This document shows, in pieces, positions 28,287 through 57,102 of a DNA stretch of 64,000 nt. Made by a program: the position numbers and the translations under genes. Source of the stretch: Candidatus Kaiserbacteria bacterium CG10_big_fil_rev_8_21_14_0_10_45_20 (GTDB lineage: Bacteria; Patescibacteriota; Minisyncoccia; Phycocordibacterales; Phycocordibacteraceae); NCBI GenBank assembly GCA_002773335.1, contig PFBH01000014.1:8023-72022 (forward strand), written 5' to 3'. A model generated the notes under the pieces. The model did no database searches, was not told where the DNA came from, and was given only the letters and a program-made list of their open reading frames with translations. Position 1 is the first letter of the stretch, and every line of letters starts with the position of its first letter.

Positions 28287-28317
28287 AAAAAAGACCCTCT
28301 CTTTAGGGTCTTTTTTA
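28287..28317. terminator. Bidirectional terminator between rplB and the transposase-like gene
   Basis: AAAAAAGACCCT-CTCTTT-AGGGTCTTTTTT. Confidence 0.8.
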
Positions 28318-29001
28318 ATATGGGTACTGTTCTGTGTCAGAAAGCTCTTCCTCTAATATTTTTGCTGTTGATGTATTTACAAAGTCTTTGTAGTTGCTAT
28401 TTGGAGTTGTTTCAAATTGTTCGGCGATAATATCTGACTCAAGAAGTCCTCCCCACCGGTTTGCTTCGGTAAGGTCTTGAAGAGAAGACCAAGGATATGA
28501 AAACTCTTTATTTTTCCAAGCAGACAGTTCACGGGGGTTTCTATGAATATATGCTGAAAGGTAGAGTAACTGTTTATTATCTTTTACGTGCACCGATTTA
28601 AAACGGCCTTGAAACACATGACCAGAAAGATGGTGACGTGTATTCATATACATCGTGTGAGCAACGAGGATTCGTTGCATATAGGCACTGATTCCTCCCG
28701 GGATCTTTTCGCGAACAAGGAGGTGGAAGTGGTTAGGCATAAGACAAAAAGAGGTAAGCTCAACAAAACGTGACTGCAAAACCTCAGAAAGCTTTTTTTC
28801 TGAAACGGGAAACCCAGTGAGCGCGTTGTAATTTTTTATATACCGCGTGACATTTTCAAACTGAATTGGTGACTGGAAGTAGAGGATGGAGAATAAAAAA
28901 CGCCGGCGATCAATATCATCTTTAAAAATATTTCCTCTACGCGAACCTCTATTGAAAATGTGGTAGTACTCGCCTTCAGCAATATTGCGTTTCTGAGTCA
29001 T
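28315..29001 (-). CDS. REP-associated tyrosine transposase-like protein (RAYT, Y1/HUH family)
   Basis: YYHIFNRG, IFKDD, FCLMPNHFHLL (HUH), GHVFQGRFKS, YIHRNP, YPWSS; start placed at ATG 29001. Confidence 0.9.
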   Translation of the reverse strand: MTQKRNIAEGEYYHIFNRGSRRGNIFKDDIDRRRFLFSILYFQSPIQFENVTRYIKNYNALTGFPVSEKKLSEVLQSRFVELTSFCLMPNHFHLLVREKIPGGISAYMQRILVAHTMYMNTRHHLSGHVFQGRFKSVHVKDNKQLLYLSAYIHRNPRELSAWKNKEFSYPWSSLQDLTEANRWGGLLESDIIAEQFETTPNSNYKDFVNTSTAKILEEELSDTEQYPY

Positions 29002-29016
29002 ATCTTTTTTGAGTGT

Positions 29017-29056
29017 AACACAAATGTTGGAGACCCGGGTCTCCAACATTTGTGTT
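29017..29056. repeat. Perfect 40-bp palindrome (REP-like) directly upstream of the RAYT
   Basis: AACACAAATGTTGGAGACCC|GGGTCTCCAACATTTGTGTT. Confidence 0.9.
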
Positions 29057-50041: not shown

Positions 50042-50734
50042 ATGTCAAAGTTTTCAAAACGAGACCTAGCGATTCGGATGCGAGAAAAAGGAATGAGTTA
50101 TTCTCAAATAAAAGAGCATTTGCAAGTCAGTAAAAGCACCCTTAGTTTATGGCTTCGTCATATGCCCCTCTCGGAACAGAGAATACGAGAACTGCGAGAT
50201 CACTCTGAGCAACGAATAGAGAAAACAAGGGAAACAAAACGAAAGAAAAAGTTACAGCGTATACGCAGTGTTTACTCTGAGGCTGTAAAAGATATTGGTA
50301 AAGTTTCAAAAAGAGAACTGTATATAGCGGGGTTTTTTCTCTATTGGGGGGAGGGGGTAAAAGCTGATCCGTATACAACGATGTTTACGAATACTGACCC
50401 TGCTATGGTGAAGTGTTTCATTCAGTGGATCGCTCTTTTAGGAGTAAAAAAATCTGACTTGAAAGTATATCTACACGTTTATAGTGATATGGACATTCCC
50501 CAAATAATTACATTCTGGTCTAATGAATTAAATATCCCTCAATCGTCGTTTCGGAAACCATACGTTAAAAAAAGTGTTGCTGGTAAACAAAAAAATTATA
50601 AGGGTCGTTTTGGTTTTGGTACCTGTAATATATATGTGCGTAATAGAGACATACGTGAAAAAATAATTATGTCTATTGCCAGGATACGAGAAGTCTATGG
50701 GGGTATTGCTTTTGACCCTGAAAAAGAGATATAG
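50042..50734 (+). CDS. tRNA-adjacent protein with N-terminal HTH and LAGLIDADG-like C-terminal domain
   Basis: KGMSYSQIKEHLQVSKSTLSLWLR (HTH); IAGFFLYWGEG followed by FTNTDP; ends 7 nt before a tRNA. Confidence 0.7.
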   Translation: MSKFSKRDLAIRMREKGMSYSQIKEHLQVSKSTLSLWLRHMPLSEQRIRELRDHSEQRIEKTRETKRKKKLQRIRSVYSEAVKDIGKVSKRELYIAGFFLYWGEGVKADPYTTMFTNTDPAMVKCFIQWIALLGVKKSDLKVYLHVYSDMDIPQIITFWSNELNIPQSSFRKPYVKKSVAGKQKNYKGRFGFGTCNIYVRNRDIREKIIMSIARIREVYGGIAFDPEKEI

Positions 50735-50741
50735 TTTAAAT

Positions 50742-50816
50742 CCGCCCTTAGCTCAATTGGTTAGAGCATCTAGCTTATACCTAGAAGGTTTCCTGGTTCG
50801 AGTCCAGGAGGGCGGA
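50742..50816 (+). tRNA. tRNA-Ile(UAU)
   Basis: Cloverleaf: CCGCCCT/AGGGCGG acceptor, GCTC/GAGC D stem, TCTAG-CT TAT AC-CTAGA anticodon arm, CCTGG-TTCGAGT-CCAGG T arm; CCA not encoded. Confidence 0.93.
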
Positions 50817-51220
50817 CATGATAGAGAAAAGCAAACTGCTTTGCTTTTCTCGATACATGTCCGAGCCGGAGCCATGTTTTTCCAGCAGGAAAAACAGGCG
50901 AGGCGGGGTCGCGGAATTTTGCGAGTGACTGACGAGCAAAATATCCGTGACGACCAGACAGAAATATCCCGCCTGCGCGGGATTTTCTGCGTCAGTCCGA
51001 GGCACAGGGTTGTGTGAGTTTGAGCGAAGCGAAAGGCGAACACCCCGAGCCGGGGTCACCACAAGAGTACTTCTATTTCTCTAATTCGATGACTCATAAG
51101 AGAAATTGGTCGCGCGAAAAATTTCCGTTAGGAAATTTATTTGTGACGACCAGATACAAATATCCCGCCTGCGCACTGTTTTTGTTTACATGTCCGAGCC
51201 GTACCACACGGGCACTTCAC
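50817..51220 (+). repeat. Modular structured trailer downstream of tRNA-Ile
   Basis: Blocks shared with the tRNA-Ser and tmRNA trailers; internal direct repeats GTGACGACCAGA..AAATATCCCGCCTGCGC (50947, 51143) and TACATGTCCGAGCCG (50854, 51187). Confidence 0.85.
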
Positions 51221-51282
51221 AAACGTGTGCAAAAAATCATTGTAGTGGCAATAACACATAACATCCTATATCATAGCTGTAT

Positions 51283-51675
51283 ATGGCAAAGGTAATACAA
51301 TTTCCCGGTAGCCCAGAGAAGCGAAGACGAATGGCTCAGGAAAGAAAATTAAGGGAAGATAGGGATTATTTTGATAAAAACAGAGCAAAGGTGCGCGTTG
51401 CCCTTGATCGACAAAAGGCATTTTCTCAACAAGTTTTTACAGAAGATATGCAAGGTAAAAAGAAAACACTCTTTGCTCACGAAAAAGACGCCTTTTCTCA
51501 AATGTCACTTGAAGACTTAATTCACGAAGCGTGGAATATTGACGAGACGGTATGGAGCGGTACACCAGCGCGAGCAAAGGCTTTCCTTTCTGCTCTGGGT
51601 GCTCGAATTGTTCGATGTGGTGGCTTTAGTGATGTTATTTCTGACCCTTCAGAGTATCCAGATGATATTGGATAA
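51283..51675 (+). CDS. Hypothetical protein (130 aa)
   Basis: ORF filling the gap between the tRNA trailer and recG; no recognised motif. Confidence 0.6.
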   Translation: MAKVIQFPGSPEKRRRMAQERKLREDRDYFDKNRAKVRVALDRQKAFSQQVFTEDMQGKKKTLFAHEKDAFSQMSLEDLIHEAWNIDETVWSGTPARAKAFLSALGARIVRCGGFSDVISDPSEYPDDIG

Positions 51676-51682
51676 GCTGACA

Positions 51683-53812
51683 CTATTCAAAGTGGAGGCT
51701 CCGAGCTTTCTTTTGAGACATCTCGCCAAGCGCGGGATGTTTTTTTAATATCGGATCTTTGGCAACCAATGCAAACGCTTCAGTGCGTGCCGCTTCAACC
51801 AGCTTAAGGTTTTTGAGTGCCTCCATTCCAATATCGGAGAGGCCGGATTGGTGCCTTCCGTATAATTCTCCAGCCCCCCTGATAGATAAATCTTTTTCGG
51901 CAAGCTCAAACCCATTCTTTGCTGTTTGTATTGCTTTTAATCGGGACGATTCGCTTTTGGCAGACGATTCAACCATTAAAAAACAGTATGGCTGGTGACT
52001 TGAGCGCATTACGCGCCCACGAAGTTGGTGGAGTTGTGCCAACCCAAACCTGTCAGCTCCCTCTATCATAATCACGGTAGCGTTTGGAACGTTTACACCA
52101 ACCTCAACGACAGAGGTTGCTACTAAAATATCTATCTCTCCGTTAGCGAACGAGTTCATCACGTCTTCTTTTTCTTTCGGAGTCATTTTGCTGTGCAATT
52201 TTTCAATACGCCACTCTGGAAACACGCTCTCTTTGAGGCGTTTTGTCTCTGACGCAACACTCCTCGTTTGAAGAGCCATATACTTTGTTGGATCAGGCTC
52301 ATCAATGCGCGGGCAAATAACGTATGCTTGATGACCCTCTTTCAGAAGTTCTAACACTTTTTTATACGCGGTGTCTCTTTTTGGAGGTGTAATGATATCG
52401 GTAACAATGGCCTTTCTTCCAAGAGGCATCTGCTCAAGTACCGTTAAATCAAGGTCTCCGTAGAGTGTGAGCGCAAGCGTGCGGGGTATTGGTGTTGCGG
52501 TCATTGAAAGGAGGTGGGGCGACGCACCGTCTTTTTTTGCAATTTCTTTTCTTTGCGCGGTACCAAATCGATGCTGTTCGTCGATAATAACGTAGGCGAG
52601 GTGTTTAAAATTAACTGTCTTCTGTATAAGAGAGTGCGTTCCAATAAGAATTGGAATTTCTCCATTTGCCACCCACTTTAGTAGTTGAGTGCGAGAAATA
52701 GGCGTCGCGTCTTTTTTATTTACCTTTGATGGAAACTTGTAACAACCGCTTGATGTTATAAGCCCGATATTGATAGGGTGATCGATAAAAAAATCGGTAA
52801 ATGTTTTAAAGTGTTGCTTTGCCAAAATCTCAGTCGGTACCATATAGGCAACCTGAAGGTTGCCAAAATCCTGCCCGTGGGGGCGCGAAGTCACTACACT
52901 GTAGGCGGTTGCAGCAGCGACAGCCGTCTTTCCGCTTCCTACGTCTCCTTCAAGGAGGCGGTGCATAGGGTAACTATTTTCAAAATCTTTCAAAATGTCA
53001 CTGATAGAGTCCACCTGCCCTTTTGTGGGGGTAAACGGAAACGAGTCAATAAACGTCTGAAGCTTTTTTTTGTCTGTGTCTATAACGTACGACTTCTCGT
53101 TTTTATTTCGCTCTCGTTCTTTTGCACGGTCAACTTGAATAAGAAACACCTCTTCAAATGCAAACCGTTTTCGCGCTGTTTCTGCGTCTTTTTCTTTTTT
53201 GGGTTGGTGCGCAAAGACAAACGAGTCTCTGAGTGATGGCAGGTTATATTTTTTTAAAATGGTAGGAGGTATAACGTCTTCAATAAAATCAAGCACATCA
53301 CTGCGCAGTACTTTTTGGATGGTGTGGTACAGCCACAGAGACGAGACGCCGGCTGACTCTGGGTACACCGGAAAGAGCCCTTCGTATCCCTCAAGAATGG
53401 GAATGCATGTTGCTTTCTCAACAACGGGGTTGGCGACATACTTCTTTCCGTTTCGTTCGGTTACTTTTCCACGAATACGAACGAGCTCTCCTTCTTGAAT
53501 CATTTTTGCCAGATACGGTTGATGAAACCACACAACACGGAGGGTATGAGATCCGTCAGAAAACGAACCTTCTGCCATCGGTACTTTTGTGCGGAATGAT
53601 TTTTTTATTTCTAATTTAGAAAACTGACCATATATAACCACTGTTTCATTTGGCTCTGCGGTTGCAATGCGCCTAATATCGGCAGAAGACTCGTACCGAG
53701 AGGGGATGTGGTACAAAAGGTCCAGCACCGTTTCTATACCAAGCTTTGTGAGGGCAACAGCTTGCTGTTTCTGTATCCTAAAATGAGAAGAGAGCGTATC
53801 GTGTGGCTTCAT
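51683..53812 (-). CDS. recG: ATP-dependent DNA helicase RecG
   Basis: RLLEGDVGSGKT, PTEILAKQH, IIDEQHRFG, MTATPIPRTL, QLHQLRGRV; start placed at ATG 53812. Confidence 0.96.
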   Translation of the reverse strand: MKPHDTLSSHFRIQKQQAVALTKLGIETVLDLLYHIPSRYESSADIRRIATAEPNETVVIYGQFSKLEIKKSFRTKVPMAEGSFSDGSHTLRVVWFHQPYLAKMIQEGELVRIRGKVTERNGKKYVANPVVEKATCIPILEGYEGLFPVYPESAGVSSLWLYHTIQKVLRSDVLDFIEDVIPPTILKKYNLPSLRDSFVFAHQPKKEKDAETARKRFAFEEVFLIQVDRAKERERNKNEKSYVIDTDKKKLQTFIDSFPFTPTKGQVDSISDILKDFENSYPMHRLLEGDVGSGKTAVAAATAYSVVTSRPHGQDFGNLQVAYMVPTEILAKQHFKTFTDFFIDHPINIGLITSSGCYKFPSKVNKKDATPISRTQLLKWVANGEIPILIGTHSLIQKTVNFKHLAYVIIDEQHRFGTAQRKEIAKKDGASPHLLSMTATPIPRTLALTLYGDLDLTVLEQMPLGRKAIVTDIITPPKRDTAYKKVLELLKEGHQAYVICPRIDEPDPTKYMALQTRSVASETKRLKESVFPEWRIEKLHSKMTPKEKEDVMNSFANGEIDILVATSVVEVGVNVPNATVIMIEGADRFGLAQLHQLRGRVMRSSHQPYCFLMVESSAKSESSRLKAIQTAKNGFELAEKDLSIRGAGELYGRHQSGLSDIGMEALKNLKLVEAARTEAFALVAKDPILKKHPALGEMSQKKARSLHFE

Positions 53813-53844
53813 GCTAAATTGTTTCAAGTATACCTCTCTTATAT

Positions 53845-55005
53845 ATGACACGAAAGAAAAAGTATATCGGCGCCCACTCCCTCTCTGAGCACAAGAAATT
53901 AAAAGGGAAGATCGAGGTTGTAGGAAAAGTGCACCTTAAAACACTTGAAGACTGGTCAACTTTTTACACGCCGGGGGTAGGGGCCGTTTCAACGCACCTT
54001 GGCAAAACTCCGGAAGATGCTCGTGTCTACACCATTAAACGAAACACGGTGGCAGTTGTCTCGGACGGCTCTGCTGTACTCGGCTTAGGAAACATCGGCC
54101 CTTATGGAGCACTGCCGGTGATGGAAGGTAAAGCACTTATCTTTAAAGATAGGGCGAACATTGATGCGTTTCCGATTGTGCTTGATACGCAAGACCCCGA
54201 CGAGATTATTGAGACGGTAGTGCGTATTGCCCCTGCCTTTGGAGGCATCAACCTTGAGGATATTGCCGCTCCACAGTGTTTTTATATTGAAGAAGAGTTA
54301 AAGAAACGACTACCAATACCGGTAATGCATGACGACCAACACGGCACCGCGATTGTCGTTTTAGCAGGGTTAATAAACGCACTAACGGTGGTAAAGAAAA
54401 AGTTGTCAGCAGTCTCTATTACTGTCGTTGGAGCAGGGGCCGCCGGTTTTGCCATCGCTCAATTATTAAAAAAAGCGGGAGCGTCTGACATTCGCGTCAC
54501 TGATCGAGTGGGGGTTATTGGAAAACATCGCGCAGGTCTTGCACCCCACAAAACCGTTTTGGCAAACCTCCCTACAAAACGTCCAAGAGCGGTAACACTA
54601 CTAGACGCGACGACTGACTCTGACGTCTTAATTGCGGTATCGGGCCCCGGTACGGTAACTGCTGAGCACATTATCGCGATGAATAGTAATGCCATTGTGT
54701 TTGCGCTCGCAAACCCGACTCCGGAAATTATGCCAAACATTGCAACGCAGGCGGGGGCAACAGTGGTCGCAACGGGGCGGTCCGATTTTCCGAACCAGAT
54801 AAACAACGCACTCGTCTTCCCGGGTATTTTTAGAGGGGCGCTTGATAGCGGTGTTTCCGATATTACTGAGGATATGAAACTAAAGGCCGCGTACGCGCTG
54901 GCACGGTTAGTGAAGGCTCCTCACAAAGATAATATTGTGCCGTCTGTCCTTGACGGTAAGGTGGCAAAGGCGGTGGCACGAGCGGTGAGCGGTTTTAAAA
55001 AATAA
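53845..55005 (+). CDS. NAD(P)-dependent malic enzyme
   Basis: YTPGV, VVSDGSAVLGLGNIG, PVMEGKA, INLEDI, HDDQHGTA, GAGAAG, ANPTPEI, NQINN. Confidence 0.94.
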   Translation: MTRKKKYIGAHSLSEHKKLKGKIEVVGKVHLKTLEDWSTFYTPGVGAVSTHLGKTPEDARVYTIKRNTVAVVSDGSAVLGLGNIGPYGALPVMEGKALIFKDRANIDAFPIVLDTQDPDEIIETVVRIAPAFGGINLEDIAAPQCFYIEEELKKRLPIPVMHDDQHGTAIVVLAGLINALTVVKKKLSAVSITVVGAGAAGFAIAQLLKKAGASDIRVTDRVGVIGKHRAGLAPHKTVLANLPTKRPRAVTLLDATTDSDVLIAVSGPGTVTAEHIIAMNSNAIVFALANPTPEIMPNIATQAGATVVATGRSDFPNQINNALVFPGIFRGALDSGVSDITEDMKLKAAYALARLVKAPHKDNIVPSVLDGKVAKAVARAVSGFKK

Positions 55006-55006
55006 T

Positions 55007-55663
55007 ATGTCGGCAGAGTCATTTAAGAGAGCAAGAGATCGTTGGCAAATTGAAAGAGAGGCTAAGATTTTTCTTTCAAAAAAAGGTATTGCAAAGTGGA
55101 AAGAGAGGTTAGAGCAAGAAGGGCTCCGTAAATTTCATGACGCGATTATTGATACTCGGTGGGTACGGGTTCCTGATATACGCGGTCGATTTGTGAGCGC
55201 TCGCCTCCGTACCGCGACAGAGAAAAAAGACCCGAAGCAGTTTTTATGGGCAATTAAGGTTCGTACATCAGCGCACTCTGAGGCAAAGCACATTAAAGAG
55301 TGTTACGAACTCGAAGGAAGTGGAGATTCAATGAAATCAGTACGAAAAGAACTCAAGAAACACTTAAGGGCGGTGCTCGGCAAAGAAACTCCAGACAAGT
55401 TGATAGAAGATAGGCGTCTTATAAAACGACGAGTGTCGTACGAAACGCAAGATCTTAACCACTCACTTTTTGGCGTACGGTTTGATATAGATACACTTGA
55501 GACTGTGAACGGTAAAAAAATAGACCCTCCCATCCACATTCTCGAACTAGAGGGGCTTTCGGAAACGTTGATACTCTCAGCGACTAAACACTTGGGGATA
55601 GATCCGCAAAAACTTTCTTCTATATCAGGCAAGGTATTGCTGAAAGAGACGGGGTATTTGTAG
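55007..55663 (+). CDS. Hypothetical protein, possible CYTH/triphosphate-tunnel family
   Basis: N-terminal IEREAK (ExExK), RLR, YELE, KRRVSY, FDID, LELEG pattern. Confidence 0.6.
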   Translation: MSAESFKRARDRWQIEREAKIFLSKKGIAKWKERLEQEGLRKFHDAIIDTRWVRVPDIRGRFVSARLRTATEKKDPKQFLWAIKVRTSAHSEAKHIKECYELEGSGDSMKSVRKELKKHLRAVLGKETPDKLIEDRRLIKRRVSYETQDLNHSLFGVRFDIDTLETVNGKKIDPPIHILELEGLSETLILSATKHLGIDPQKLSSISGKVLLKETGYL

Positions 55664-56232
55664 AGAGTGCGGGATGTGTCTTCGCTACGCTCGCACGCAT
55701 CGGTCACAGATATTTTGTTCGCCGTCGCTCACAAAATTCCGCGCGACCAATTTCTCTTACGAGTCTGCGAGTTAGAGAAATGGAAGTACTCTTGTGGTGA
55801 CCCTGTCTCGCGACCCATTCTGCTGAATGGGTACCCTGCTCCGGCTTTCGCGACTTTGTTTTGTTACGAACGAAGTGAGTTAGAAAACAAGAAGTGCCCG
55901 TGTGGTACGACTTTGTTTTGTTACGAACGAAGTGAGTTAGAAAACAAGAAGTGCCCGTGTGGTGAATCCCGACGTAAAGCACGCAGGTGCTTTACTCACT
56001 CTCCGCAGTATACTCACTGCGCTCGAATCTGCGGAGAGTGCGGGATGTGTCTTCGCTACGCTCGCACGCATCGGTCAGGAATAATTTGCTCGTCAGTCAC
56101 TCGCAAATTTTCACGACCCTGGCTCGTCTGTTTTTTCTGCTGAAAAAACATGACTGCGCCTTTCGAATCCCGACGTAAAGCACGCAGGTGCTTTACTCAC
56201 TCTCCGCAGTATACTCACTGCGCTCGAATCTG
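55663..56232 (-). repeat. Modular structured trailer downstream of tRNA-Ser with duplicated tRNA 3' ends
   Basis: 83-bp direct repeat 55964-56046/56165-56247; 44-bp repeat 55663-55706/56034-56077; 56-bp tandem 55851-55906/55908-55963. Confidence 0.9.
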
Positions 56233-56319
56233 CGGAGAGTGCGGGATTCGAACCCGCGAGGGCGGTTAAGCCCTACCTCGTTAGCAGTGAGGCGCTTTCG
56301 ACCACTCAGCCAACTCTCC
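56233..56319 (-). tRNA. tRNA-Ser(GCU)
   Basis: GGAGAGT/ACTCTCC acceptor, CCTCA-CT GCT AA-CGAGG anticodon arm, long variable arm AGGGC-TTAACC-GCCCT, GCGGG-TTCGAAT-CCCGC, discriminator G. Confidence 0.95.
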
Positions 56320-56410
56320 GTGTTATACACAATGAAGCGATGACTTCTATCTATCTTTCGACAGATGTTCCCGTCATATTGGGACAGGCAGCCAACTCTC
56401 CGTAAGGTGA

Positions 56411-56439
56411 ACTATATTGCATTTTCTTGTTAGTTGCAA
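56411..56439 (-). promoter_or_regulatory. Candidate tRNA-Ser promoter
   Basis: Minus strand TTGCAA-17-TATAGT. Confidence 0.6.
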
Positions 56440-56445
56440 AAACTA

Positions 56446-57102
56446 TTAGTGCGCTAGCGCTATTCCGATAACTTCTTTTGCGCCTGCCTCAAGGAGGGCA
56501 CGACGCGCGTCTTTTAGTGTCGCGCCGGTTTCTGACACGTCGTCTACCACAATACAGCACTCACCCGAGACGAGCTGTCTTTGCGCTTCATCGTTCGTGA
56601 CAAAAAATGCACGAGACACATTCTCGACACGTTTTTTCTTTTCGGTGCGAAGTTGGCTTGGTCTCTCTTTTCTCTTTAATACATTGGGCGTGTATCGTAC
56701 CGACGTTTCTATAAAGGGAAGTGCGTACTCAACTATTCTTTCAACTTGATTATACCCGCGCTTTCTCTTGCGTTTTGCTGAAGAAGGGATAGGAACGAGA
56801 AGCGGTCGTCGCCACTCAAGGTCAAGCGCGCGTTCTTCAAGGGCGTTCAGCACCATATCGGACATACACAGACCAAGAATCTGAGACGCTTTCTTTGTTC
56901 CATAAAATTTGTTTGCACGGATGAGCGATTGAATATCTTGGTCGCGGTATGAAAATCCGACAAAAATCCACGGGAGAGGCTTGGCACGCACAATCAGTTT
57001 TTCTCGTACCGTATCGATGGTAATGGCGCGAATACGTACCACATCTTTTGGTGGAGGAAAAAAGAAGTCTATAATGGAAGAGACGAGTGTAGGTGCGTGC
57101 AT
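56446..57102 (-). CDS. comF: ComF family phosphoribosyltransferase-like competence protein
   Basis: LVPIP, RKRGYNQ, VVDDVSETGATL. Confidence 0.88.
   Translation of the reverse strand: MHAPTLVSSIIDFFFPPPKDVVRIRAITIDTVREKLIVRAKPLPWIFVGFSYRDQDIQSLIRANKFYGTKKASQILGLCMSDMVLNALEERALDLEWRRPLLVPIPSSAKRKRKRGYNQVERIVEYALPFIETSVRYTPNVLKRKERPSQLRTEKKKRVENVSRAFFVTNDEAQRQLVSGECCIVVDDVSETGATLKDARRALLEAGAKEVIGIALAH

Follow-up and report, generated by a model that had tools for sequence, protein, structure and literature searches.

A single-hairpin module in the tRNA trailers of a Kaiserbacteria genome, likely a miniature mobile element

How does the same short piece of DNA come to stand three times behind one tRNA gene and once behind another, while sites of the same sequence nearby lack it? 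The question is raised by a window of 64,000 nucleotides (the whole stretch of DNA analysed here) from Candidatus Kaiserbacteria bacterium CG10_big_fil_rev_8_21_14_0_10_45_20, contig PFBH01000014.1. It corresponds to positions 8023-72022 of contig C3 in the source genome, G000 (608,577 bp, 22 contigs, 45% GC), the proteins of which are bacterial (FtsH, RecG, PilM, SecY). The repeated unit, henceforth the module, is real and likely a mobile miniature element of the REP/IS200-like kind. More specifically, we read it as a non-autonomous mobile DNA element with a single hairpin, which would be excised and reinserted as a DNA single strand, leaving its target unduplicated, and would land beside mimics of its own 3' end. 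We rate the probability of this reading at roughly 55%.

Copies, empty sites and anatomy of the module

The copies in the window, the empty counterparts of their sites and the two tRNA genes concerned are the following; a bar marks the junction.

55908-55964, minus strand: module copy of type A1, first of a tandem pair, placed at GGGATT| (85.1 bits with the covariance model, E 1.1e-18)
55851-55907, minus strand: module copy of type A1, second of the tandem pair, joined without spacer and followed by CGAAAG (84.4 bits)
55744-55799, minus strand: module copy of type A2, site GGGT|CGCGG (73 bits)
51057-51112, plus strand: module copy of type A2 in the tRNA-Ile trailer, site GGGGT|CGCG (74.2 bits)
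51202-51218, plus strand: 5' stub (17 nt) of a module of type A1, following TACATGTCCGAGCCG (pattern match, 0 mismatches)
56160-56171, minus strand, junction 56166/56165: empty paralogous site GGGATT|CGAAAG (read from the sequence)
50900-50919, plus strand, junction 50909/50910: empty paralogous site GGGGT|CGCGGAATTT, beginning GGGGT|CGCGG (read from the sequence)
56111-56120, minus strand, junction 56116/56115: a further empty site of this type, AGGGT|CGTGA (GGGT|CGTGAA; read from the sequence, newly added)
50854-50876, plus strand, junction 50868/50869: the stub's site in its empty form, GAGCCG|GAGCC (sequence and repeat D18, newly added)
56232-56319, minus strand: tRNA-Ser(GCU) with a 570-nt trailer field holding three module copies (ARAGORN, Rfam tRNA)
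50742-50817, plus strand: tRNA-Ile(UAU), its trailer holding one copy and the stub (ARAGORN, Rfam tRNA)

An initial annotation, made from the sequence alone, had proposed these five copies, and sequence, motif count and covariance model agree on all of them. The tandem pair is an exact 56-nt direct repeat at 57-nt spacing (D3). The copy at 55744-55799 differs from A1 in its stem by compensatory changes, and the four full copies score between 73 and 85 bits (E 1e-15 to 1e-18). The 5' motif ACCACANGRGYACTTC, with up to 2 mismatches allowed, matches the window five times, each time at one of these copies; 0.37 matches were expected and none of 100 shuffles reached five, which excludes chance. The two empty paralogous sites that had been named, GGGATT|CGAAAG and GGGGT|CGCGG, exist as well, although the second had been placed at about 50896-50910, some 10 nt off. 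The empty site at 56160-56171 is the end of an exact 83-nt repeat (D1), the other copy of which is followed by the tandem pair. The 15-nt left flank of the stub recurs unfilled at 50854-50868 (D18); its counterpart GAGCCG|GAGCC implies that the sites in the window are not all of the T|CG type. The UAU anticodon of the tRNA-Ile is unusual for bacteria; a tRNA-Ile(UAU) is also found in the relatives G001 and G039.

The nine full copies of G000 align over 57 nt with a mean column identity of 84%, and across all copies the size ranges from 55 to 60 nt. A conserved 5' arm of 17 nt, YACCACANGRGYACTTC, leads into the only hairpin (model positions 14-56), which lies a few bases from the 3' end, (A/T/G)GTCG. 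The basal stem is wholly different between the two types and complementary in both, TTGTTTT/AAAACAA in one and ATTTCTCT/AGAGAAAT in the other. The internal-loop motifs CTAAYTC and TCRTAA are conserved, and a short apical stem follows. Single sequences fold weakly as DNA (z-scores -1.8 to +0.2), so the case for structure rests on covariation. The covariance model (R1) was trained on the G000 copies, for which reason distant subfamilies score low; it yields 86 matches in 63 sources. In the alignment of these 86 matches, which was fitted to the model, 93.4% of the cells are paired, against 34-56% when the partners are slid. Both-sided changes occur in 10 of the 13 pairs. In the main helix none of the six pairs has a one-sided change (G-U type), which suggests that the hairpin may matter as DNA. 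Scanning positions 50500-56500 of the window against Rfam 15, at E up to 1, returned the two tRNAs and weak chance matches, and no family for the module.

Precise insertion and spread

The module is a discrete unit that interrupts continuous sequence exactly. Nested copies illustrate this best. At loci L014 (genome G012) and L020 (G039) a full module splits the apical loop of another one, the halves of which lie on either side; L072 (G037) holds two nested 110-nt composites, which the model itself spans. At 8 of 76 sites, two or three copies follow each other head to tail without a spacer, the remaining 68 being single-copy. A composite repeat of G058 is filled at L053 and L056 and empty at L059, with the junction ACTCG|CTCTACG. 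Orthologous loci tell the same. The start of parB (Pfam ParB) is filled in G010 (by two copies), G028 and G003, and empty in 27 of 30 loci of the genus, that of G000 included. The starts of the genes for L33, the gamma subunit of ATP synthase, transketolase and one unnamed protein are likewise filled in other relatives. All five gene starts lack the module in G000; four of its orthologues read ATGTCA|C, and transketolase reads ATG|GCT. At the tRNA-Ser(GCU) trailer the situation is reversed: among 14 loci of the genus, only that of G000 carries modules, the 13 relatives having none nearby, and in the four nearest relatives examined this trailer is short and plain. Comparison of filled and empty sites reveals neither terminal inverted repeats nor a target-site duplication.

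The distribution is patchy. G000 was compared with 60 relatives, making a panel of 61, and with 150 further genomes that sample the class evenly; all are metagenome assemblies, and related genomes are non-independent samples. G000 itself has 11 matches to the covariance model, or 13 nhmmer matches plus the stub. Some match is present in 30 of the 61 genomes and a full-length one in 19, spread over 9 of 27 genera and several families. In the wider sample, 7 of the 150 genomes have matches at E <= 1e-5. Copies from different families can reach about 90% identity, as does one of G040 to the A1 type of G000. Within genomes the copies cluster: for 44 of the 73 copies counted (7 of 86 rows, with N or of odd length, were dropped) the nearest neighbour is in the same genome; 500 label shuffles gave 8.2 on average and 22 at most. 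In G001, three different trailers each hold one of three identical copies, the flanks of which have diverged. Two weak matches in viral contigs (21-22 bits), one of them inside an open reading frame, were taken as chance, and a metagenome scan with the neighbouring 218-residue protein found no relative.

The initial annotation had called the module a miniature mobile unit that inserts without target duplication. Nesting, arrays, orthologous filled and empty sites, clustering and patchy spread support this. It had also stated that fixed positions without additional empty alleles would speak against mobility; additional empty sites were found.

Its placement of the module in tRNA trailers holds for 46 of the 86 matches, 32 in the orientation of the tRNA and 14 opposite to it; the other 40 have no tRNA within 600 nt. 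In G000, 9 of the 11 matches are in trailers (Ser-GCU, Ile-UAU, Gly-UCC, Trp and Lys-UUU), all in tRNA orientation, and the remaining two stand at the end of contig C12, with no tRNA within 600 nt. Several G000 copies are cut by contig ends or N runs. Such breaks fall inside arrays, for example at C12:93214-93388 and C15:9018-9111, so the arrays are probably longer than assembled.

The trailers are built as cassettes: the tRNA is followed by a terminator hairpin and then by two copies of its own 3' end, the first inverted and the second direct, with shared hairpin modules in between. The pattern is seen behind tRNAs for Ser, Gly, Glu, His and Lys, and the module occupies three positions within it, GGGAWT|CGAAAG, GCCG|GAGC and GGGGT|CG. 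In the window such trailers extend over 55666-56231 and 50818-51220; others are found at L001, L004, L006 and L009. The 83-nt repeat D1 (55964-56046 and 56165-56247) includes the 3' end of tRNA-Ser. The 5' end of this tRNA recurs too, as an exact 15-nt repeat (D19; 56307-56321 and 56389-56403), 82 nt upstream of the gene. In G037, arrays begin directly after direct copies of tRNA 3' ends. Behind tRNA-Leu the same genome has two convergent module pairs, about 40 nt apart (L049:731-878 and L050:701-850), the sole REPIN-like doublets seen. At L057:708-764 of G027 the module adjoins a real tRNA-Gly(UCC) 3' end, whereby the gene reads ...CCCGCA-CCA, with an encoded CCA. That the 5' CACCA of the module mimics the CCA end of tRNAs was considered and dropped: most sites lack such a context, and the likeness was treated as a by-product of the G|C target. 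Another repeat family of G000 reaches about 17 copies per position at most in a self-comparison (C2:593-1109, C9:1-560, C10:1543-2149, C5:33818-34242 and others).

Target choice, mechanism and competing explanations

The target was derived from 66 unique sites, which remained of the 76 (the basis of the array count) after removal of 6 cut by N or contig ends and of 4 duplicates. At -1, 44 of them have G and 15 have T; a C stands at -2 in 31, at +1 in 55 and at +3 in 39. This gives the consensus (T)CG|C(T/A)C, which equals the junction between two modules, GTCG|CAC. The target thus mimics the end-to-start junction of the module, which explains arrays without spacer. Insertion at T|CG, as stated in the initial annotation, is correct for the A2 and tandem A1 sites of the window, not as a general rule: about a dozen of the 66 sites belong to this class. 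The left flank matches the 3' end of the module in 2.94 of 8 positions, a control 8-mer 32 nt further away in 1.81.

A subfamily ending in ATGTCG deserves attention. It stands directly after ATG-TCR at the starts of the genes for ParB, L33, ATP synthase gamma and transketolase, and an ATG at -6 to -4 of the left flank occurs in 7 of 15 ATGTCG-ended sites versus 1 of 51 others. Modules at gene starts are found here:

L025:1495-1614 (G010), L091 (G028) and L095 (G003), and also L060, L066 and L029

The last six bases of the module, ATGTCG, spell a Met-Ser start; the ParB reading frame begins at L025:1609, inside the module, and the Pfam profiles of the module-fused genes align from their first residues. 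Read in this way, the ATGTCG end restores the predicted start codon of the filled genes. In the empty genomes a -10-like box, TAnAAT, precedes the ATG by about 7 nt, which suggests that putatively leaderless messengers gain a leader of 57-114 nt once the site is filled. Either the target copies the end of the subfamily or such insertions alone are tolerated.

How might the module move? A nuclease or recombinase, acting in trans, would recognise the hairpin together with the ...TCG|C junction, cleave both ends and release the unit, which would then be joined to a different TCG|C, within a hairpin loop or in single-stranded DNA. With a single hairpin, one recognition could serve both ends, donor end and target alike. 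If so, the target would copy the element's end, an inserted copy would create a new target behind itself and hence arrays, and the ATGTCG subfamily would follow ATG-TCR. In G000 the element would live almost only in the structured tRNA-trailer cassettes, as a parasite of these repeats. The features behind this mechanism are the asymmetric ends, an orientation set by a short asymmetric target and the insertion into hairpin loops, all in the manner of single-stranded 'peel and paste' elements such as IS200/IS605 and REPs.

A number of points weigh against this mechanism. At the dozen or so T|CG sites the cut is not after TCG, and a single fixed cleavage rule fails there. Over all sites the flanks match their own module no better than a permuted one (2.94 versus 2.85 +/- 0.10). 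At gene starts, what looks like target choice could be no more than harmless insertions having survived. The fitting of the covariation alignment favours pairing, though not Watson-Crick over wobble pairs. The identical copies of G037 mostly share their flanks too and may have spread with cassettes. Neither a transposition event nor an excised circle was observed. The contigs of four sequencing runs, in which the repeats break contigs and joints may stem from other organisms, contained no clean empty allele or copy-number variant; such data are unable to reveal insertion polymorphism within the population. Above all, no enzyme is tied to the module. The candidate families were searched in five module-rich genomes: Relaxase and Nop were each found in none of the five, and TnpB and IS110 in none above cut-off; G001 and G108 have IS110 matches below it. 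The 61 genomes yielded no autonomous element that shares the ends of the module, and in them the 5' motif is confined to full or truncated modules; two orphan motifs that were inspected proved to be stubs. A large serine recombinase is present in 4 of the 5 module-rich genomes. RVT_1 was found in 11 of the 61 genomes and not in G000, G001, G025, G027 or G058; its absence from G000 speaks against a retroelement.

The candidate enzyme put forward in the initial annotation is the product of this gene:

28315-29049, minus strand: intact RAYT-like Y1 (HUH) gene, Pfam Y1_Tnp E 1.3e-10, HFH and Y-IHRNP motifs kept

The module would then be a REP-like substrate, its hairpin bound and its GTCG nicked by this enzyme or by the product of the second Y1 gene of G000 (C6, 9046-9369). 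The style of HUH Y1 enzymes would fit well, since they act on one strand and on hairpins, without inverted ends or target duplication, and insert 3' of a short motif; the copy in the window also keeps the HFH and catalytic-tyrosine motifs. A Y1 gene is indeed present in 15 of the 19 module-bearing genomes, but equally in 33 of the 42 module-free ones (grouped by full-length matches, according to our reading of the table). Nor does either Y1 gene of G000 have a match to the model or the motif near it. Pfam detects no Y1 in G037 (16 matches, 100% complete, 4 contigs) or G108 (10 matches, 98% complete), and the window protein as query finds nothing in G035, G037, G040 and G055. Y1 numbers do not track modules: G017 has 8 Y1 matches and G026 has 5, neither with a full-length module. 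In the genus, 32 of 32 genomes carry a Y1 gene, yet 14 of 32 relatives are without a full-length copy. The copies that Y1-free genomes hold may be relics or may have spread with cassettes. Taken together, this leaves the RAYT link unsupported and unlikely; the initial annotation had said that a module common in genomes lacking any HUH transposase would speak against the proposal, and judged by this the enzyme link falls, whereas the mobile unit does not. Less probable still is that the folded module, single-stranded or circular, is integrated by a Xer-like tyrosine recombinase of the host through exchange in a short shared core, as with integron attC or the hairpin attP of CTX phage. The target does share up to 8 nt with the module junction (ATGTCG|CA), and each of the five module-rich genomes has one such recombinase. 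This family, however, is also present in all 14 control genomes, so that its presence is uninformative, and recombinase core sites are much longer and less varied than the sites of the module. When exchange within a shared GGTCG core was worked through for the T|CG class, the predicted junctions did not match the sequences; we consider integration by Xer very unlikely.

Two further explanations do without mobility of the module itself. It could be a functional structured RNA, i.e., a tRNA-trailer or 5'-leader element engaged in protein binding or processing and multiplied by duplication. The conserved single-stranded arm, the CTAA...TAA internal-loop motifs and a stem that covaries across several families would suit such a role, as would the uniform orientation of all nine trailer matches in G000 and the position at gene starts, between the -10 box of the promoter and the working start codon, where it would be transcribed. 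An RNA, however, hardly accounts for the 14 trailer copies antisense to the tRNA and the 40 matches without a nearby one, for nesting, arrays and patchy distribution, for the want of G-U pairs in the main helix and of an Rfam match, or for the fact that the same loci work without the module in most relatives. We consider this as improbable as the RAYT link. Alternatively, the module may be an immobile, optional arm of tRNA-trailer cassettes or composite repeats, which spread with them and was homogenised by gene conversion and replication slippage. Most copies of G000 and G001 are at the same cassette positions, the identical copies of G037 and G058 have near-identical flanks, and slippage can grow tandem arrays. 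Against this count the copies in unique contexts outside cassettes, such as the five different gene starts, the occurrence of both orientations within cassettes, the nesting in other copies and the diverged flanks of the three identical copies of G001. An immobile arm is, in our judgement, quite unlikely. A mobile single-hairpin element remains our preferred explanation.

Significance and relation to known systems

Candidate phyla radiation (CPR) bacteria are usually called streamlined; this genome of about 0.6 Mb would carry layered selfish DNA, tRNA cassettes with a smaller element inside. The 66 unique sites, the nested copies and the orthologous empty sites offer a natural data set on how hairpin elements choose their targets. 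Housekeeping genes (parB, L33, ATP synthase gamma and transketolase) apparently receive their start codon from the element. The mobilising activity pointed to is not the expected RAYT; the enzyme, if found, would be a compact single-stranded DNA nuclease/ligase specific for sequence and structure. A practical consequence is that module arrays break metagenome-assembled genomes at tRNA loci. In the literature searched, repeats of this sort are nowhere described for CPR, Patescibacteria or Kaiserbacteria.

Elements of the IS200/IS605 family have no inverted ends, cause no target duplication, insert strand- and orientation-specifically 3' of a short motif and have a hairpin near the cleaved end. 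The module shares the lack of inverted ends and of a target duplication, the hairpin near the cut end and, apparently, the oriented insertion 3' of a short motif. It differs in having one hairpin instead of one at each end, in its preference for C at +1, beyond the cut, and in lacking an autonomous relative with the same ends among the 61 genomes. Where the family has a fixed 4-5 nt target, the module has the consensus (T)CG| (-1 G in 44 of 66 sites), together with a T|CG class and a strong +1 C. The target of the module equals the element's own end, which is not known to be so in IS608.

Mycobacterial interspersed repetitive units (MIRUs) are small tandem repeats at gene boundaries or inside genes that keep reading frames or start and stop signals usable. 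Rickettsia palindromic elements (RPEs) occur inside genes (PMC3733652). The module resembles both as a small repeat at gene boundaries that keeps signals usable, a likeness by description. It differs in that its ATGTCG end restores a start codon and that tRNA-trailer repeats are a second habitat. TIGR guide-RNA arrays, reported from CPR bacteria and phages, consist of small tandem units with CCA and UG motifs and stem-loops (PMC12045711); a TIGR-Tas array has variable dual spacers and a Nop-domain Tas protein next to it. Measured against that account, the region of the module corresponding to the 'spacer' is conserved, not variable, and 68 of 76 sites are single. The conserved 'spacer' and the missing Nop protein (0 of 5 module-rich genomes) exclude TIGR arrays.

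The closest comparison is that with REPs and REPINs and their RAYTs. The pertinent passages of PMC3733652 describe REPs as palindromes of 20-40 nt with an unpaired GTAG or CGTC tag, which form mainly inverted dimers, head-to-tail dimers being negligible. Common to both are short extragenic hairpin repeats in many copies, a conserved unpaired tag beside the stem, a non-autonomous nature and a presumed movement as single-stranded DNA; RAYT-like genes, too, occur in the lineage. Set beside those passages, the module is larger (55-60 nt) and has a two-tier stem as well as a conserved 5' arm of 17 nt. YACCAC and GTCG take the place of the GTAG or CGTC tag, and arrays run head to tail (8 of 76 sites), with no inverted pairs in G000 and the two convergent ones in G037 only. 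The module neither flanks a Y1 gene nor co-occurs with one. By the definitions given there, the module fails as a REP in size, tag, dimer type, RAYT flanking and co-occurrence. Nearest to it are the CGTC-tagged REPs (Di Nocera et al. 2013, PMC3733652), to which, according to the same passages, it was not possible to assign a dedicated transposase. Like these, it is a family of tagged hairpins for which no such enzyme was found, and its reverse strand starts with CGAC, followed by the stem; unlike these as described there, it has CGAC instead of CGTC, is larger, is arranged in tandem instead of head to head and has a target that mimics its own end.

One may go further and suspect a minimal one-hairpin transposon of an undescribed kind, in which one structure and one recognition step would define both ends, which would target copies of its own terminus, build arrays behind itself, parasitise mobile tRNA-trailer cassettes and remodel the 5' ends of essential genes by donating start codons, and which would employ an enzyme other than the known Y1/RAYT, because module-rich genomes without them exist. 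This we hold to be doubtful. In a more modest sense, the module may be a one-hairpin version of the known single-stranded DNA elements, in which the donor end and the target would be served by the same recognition.

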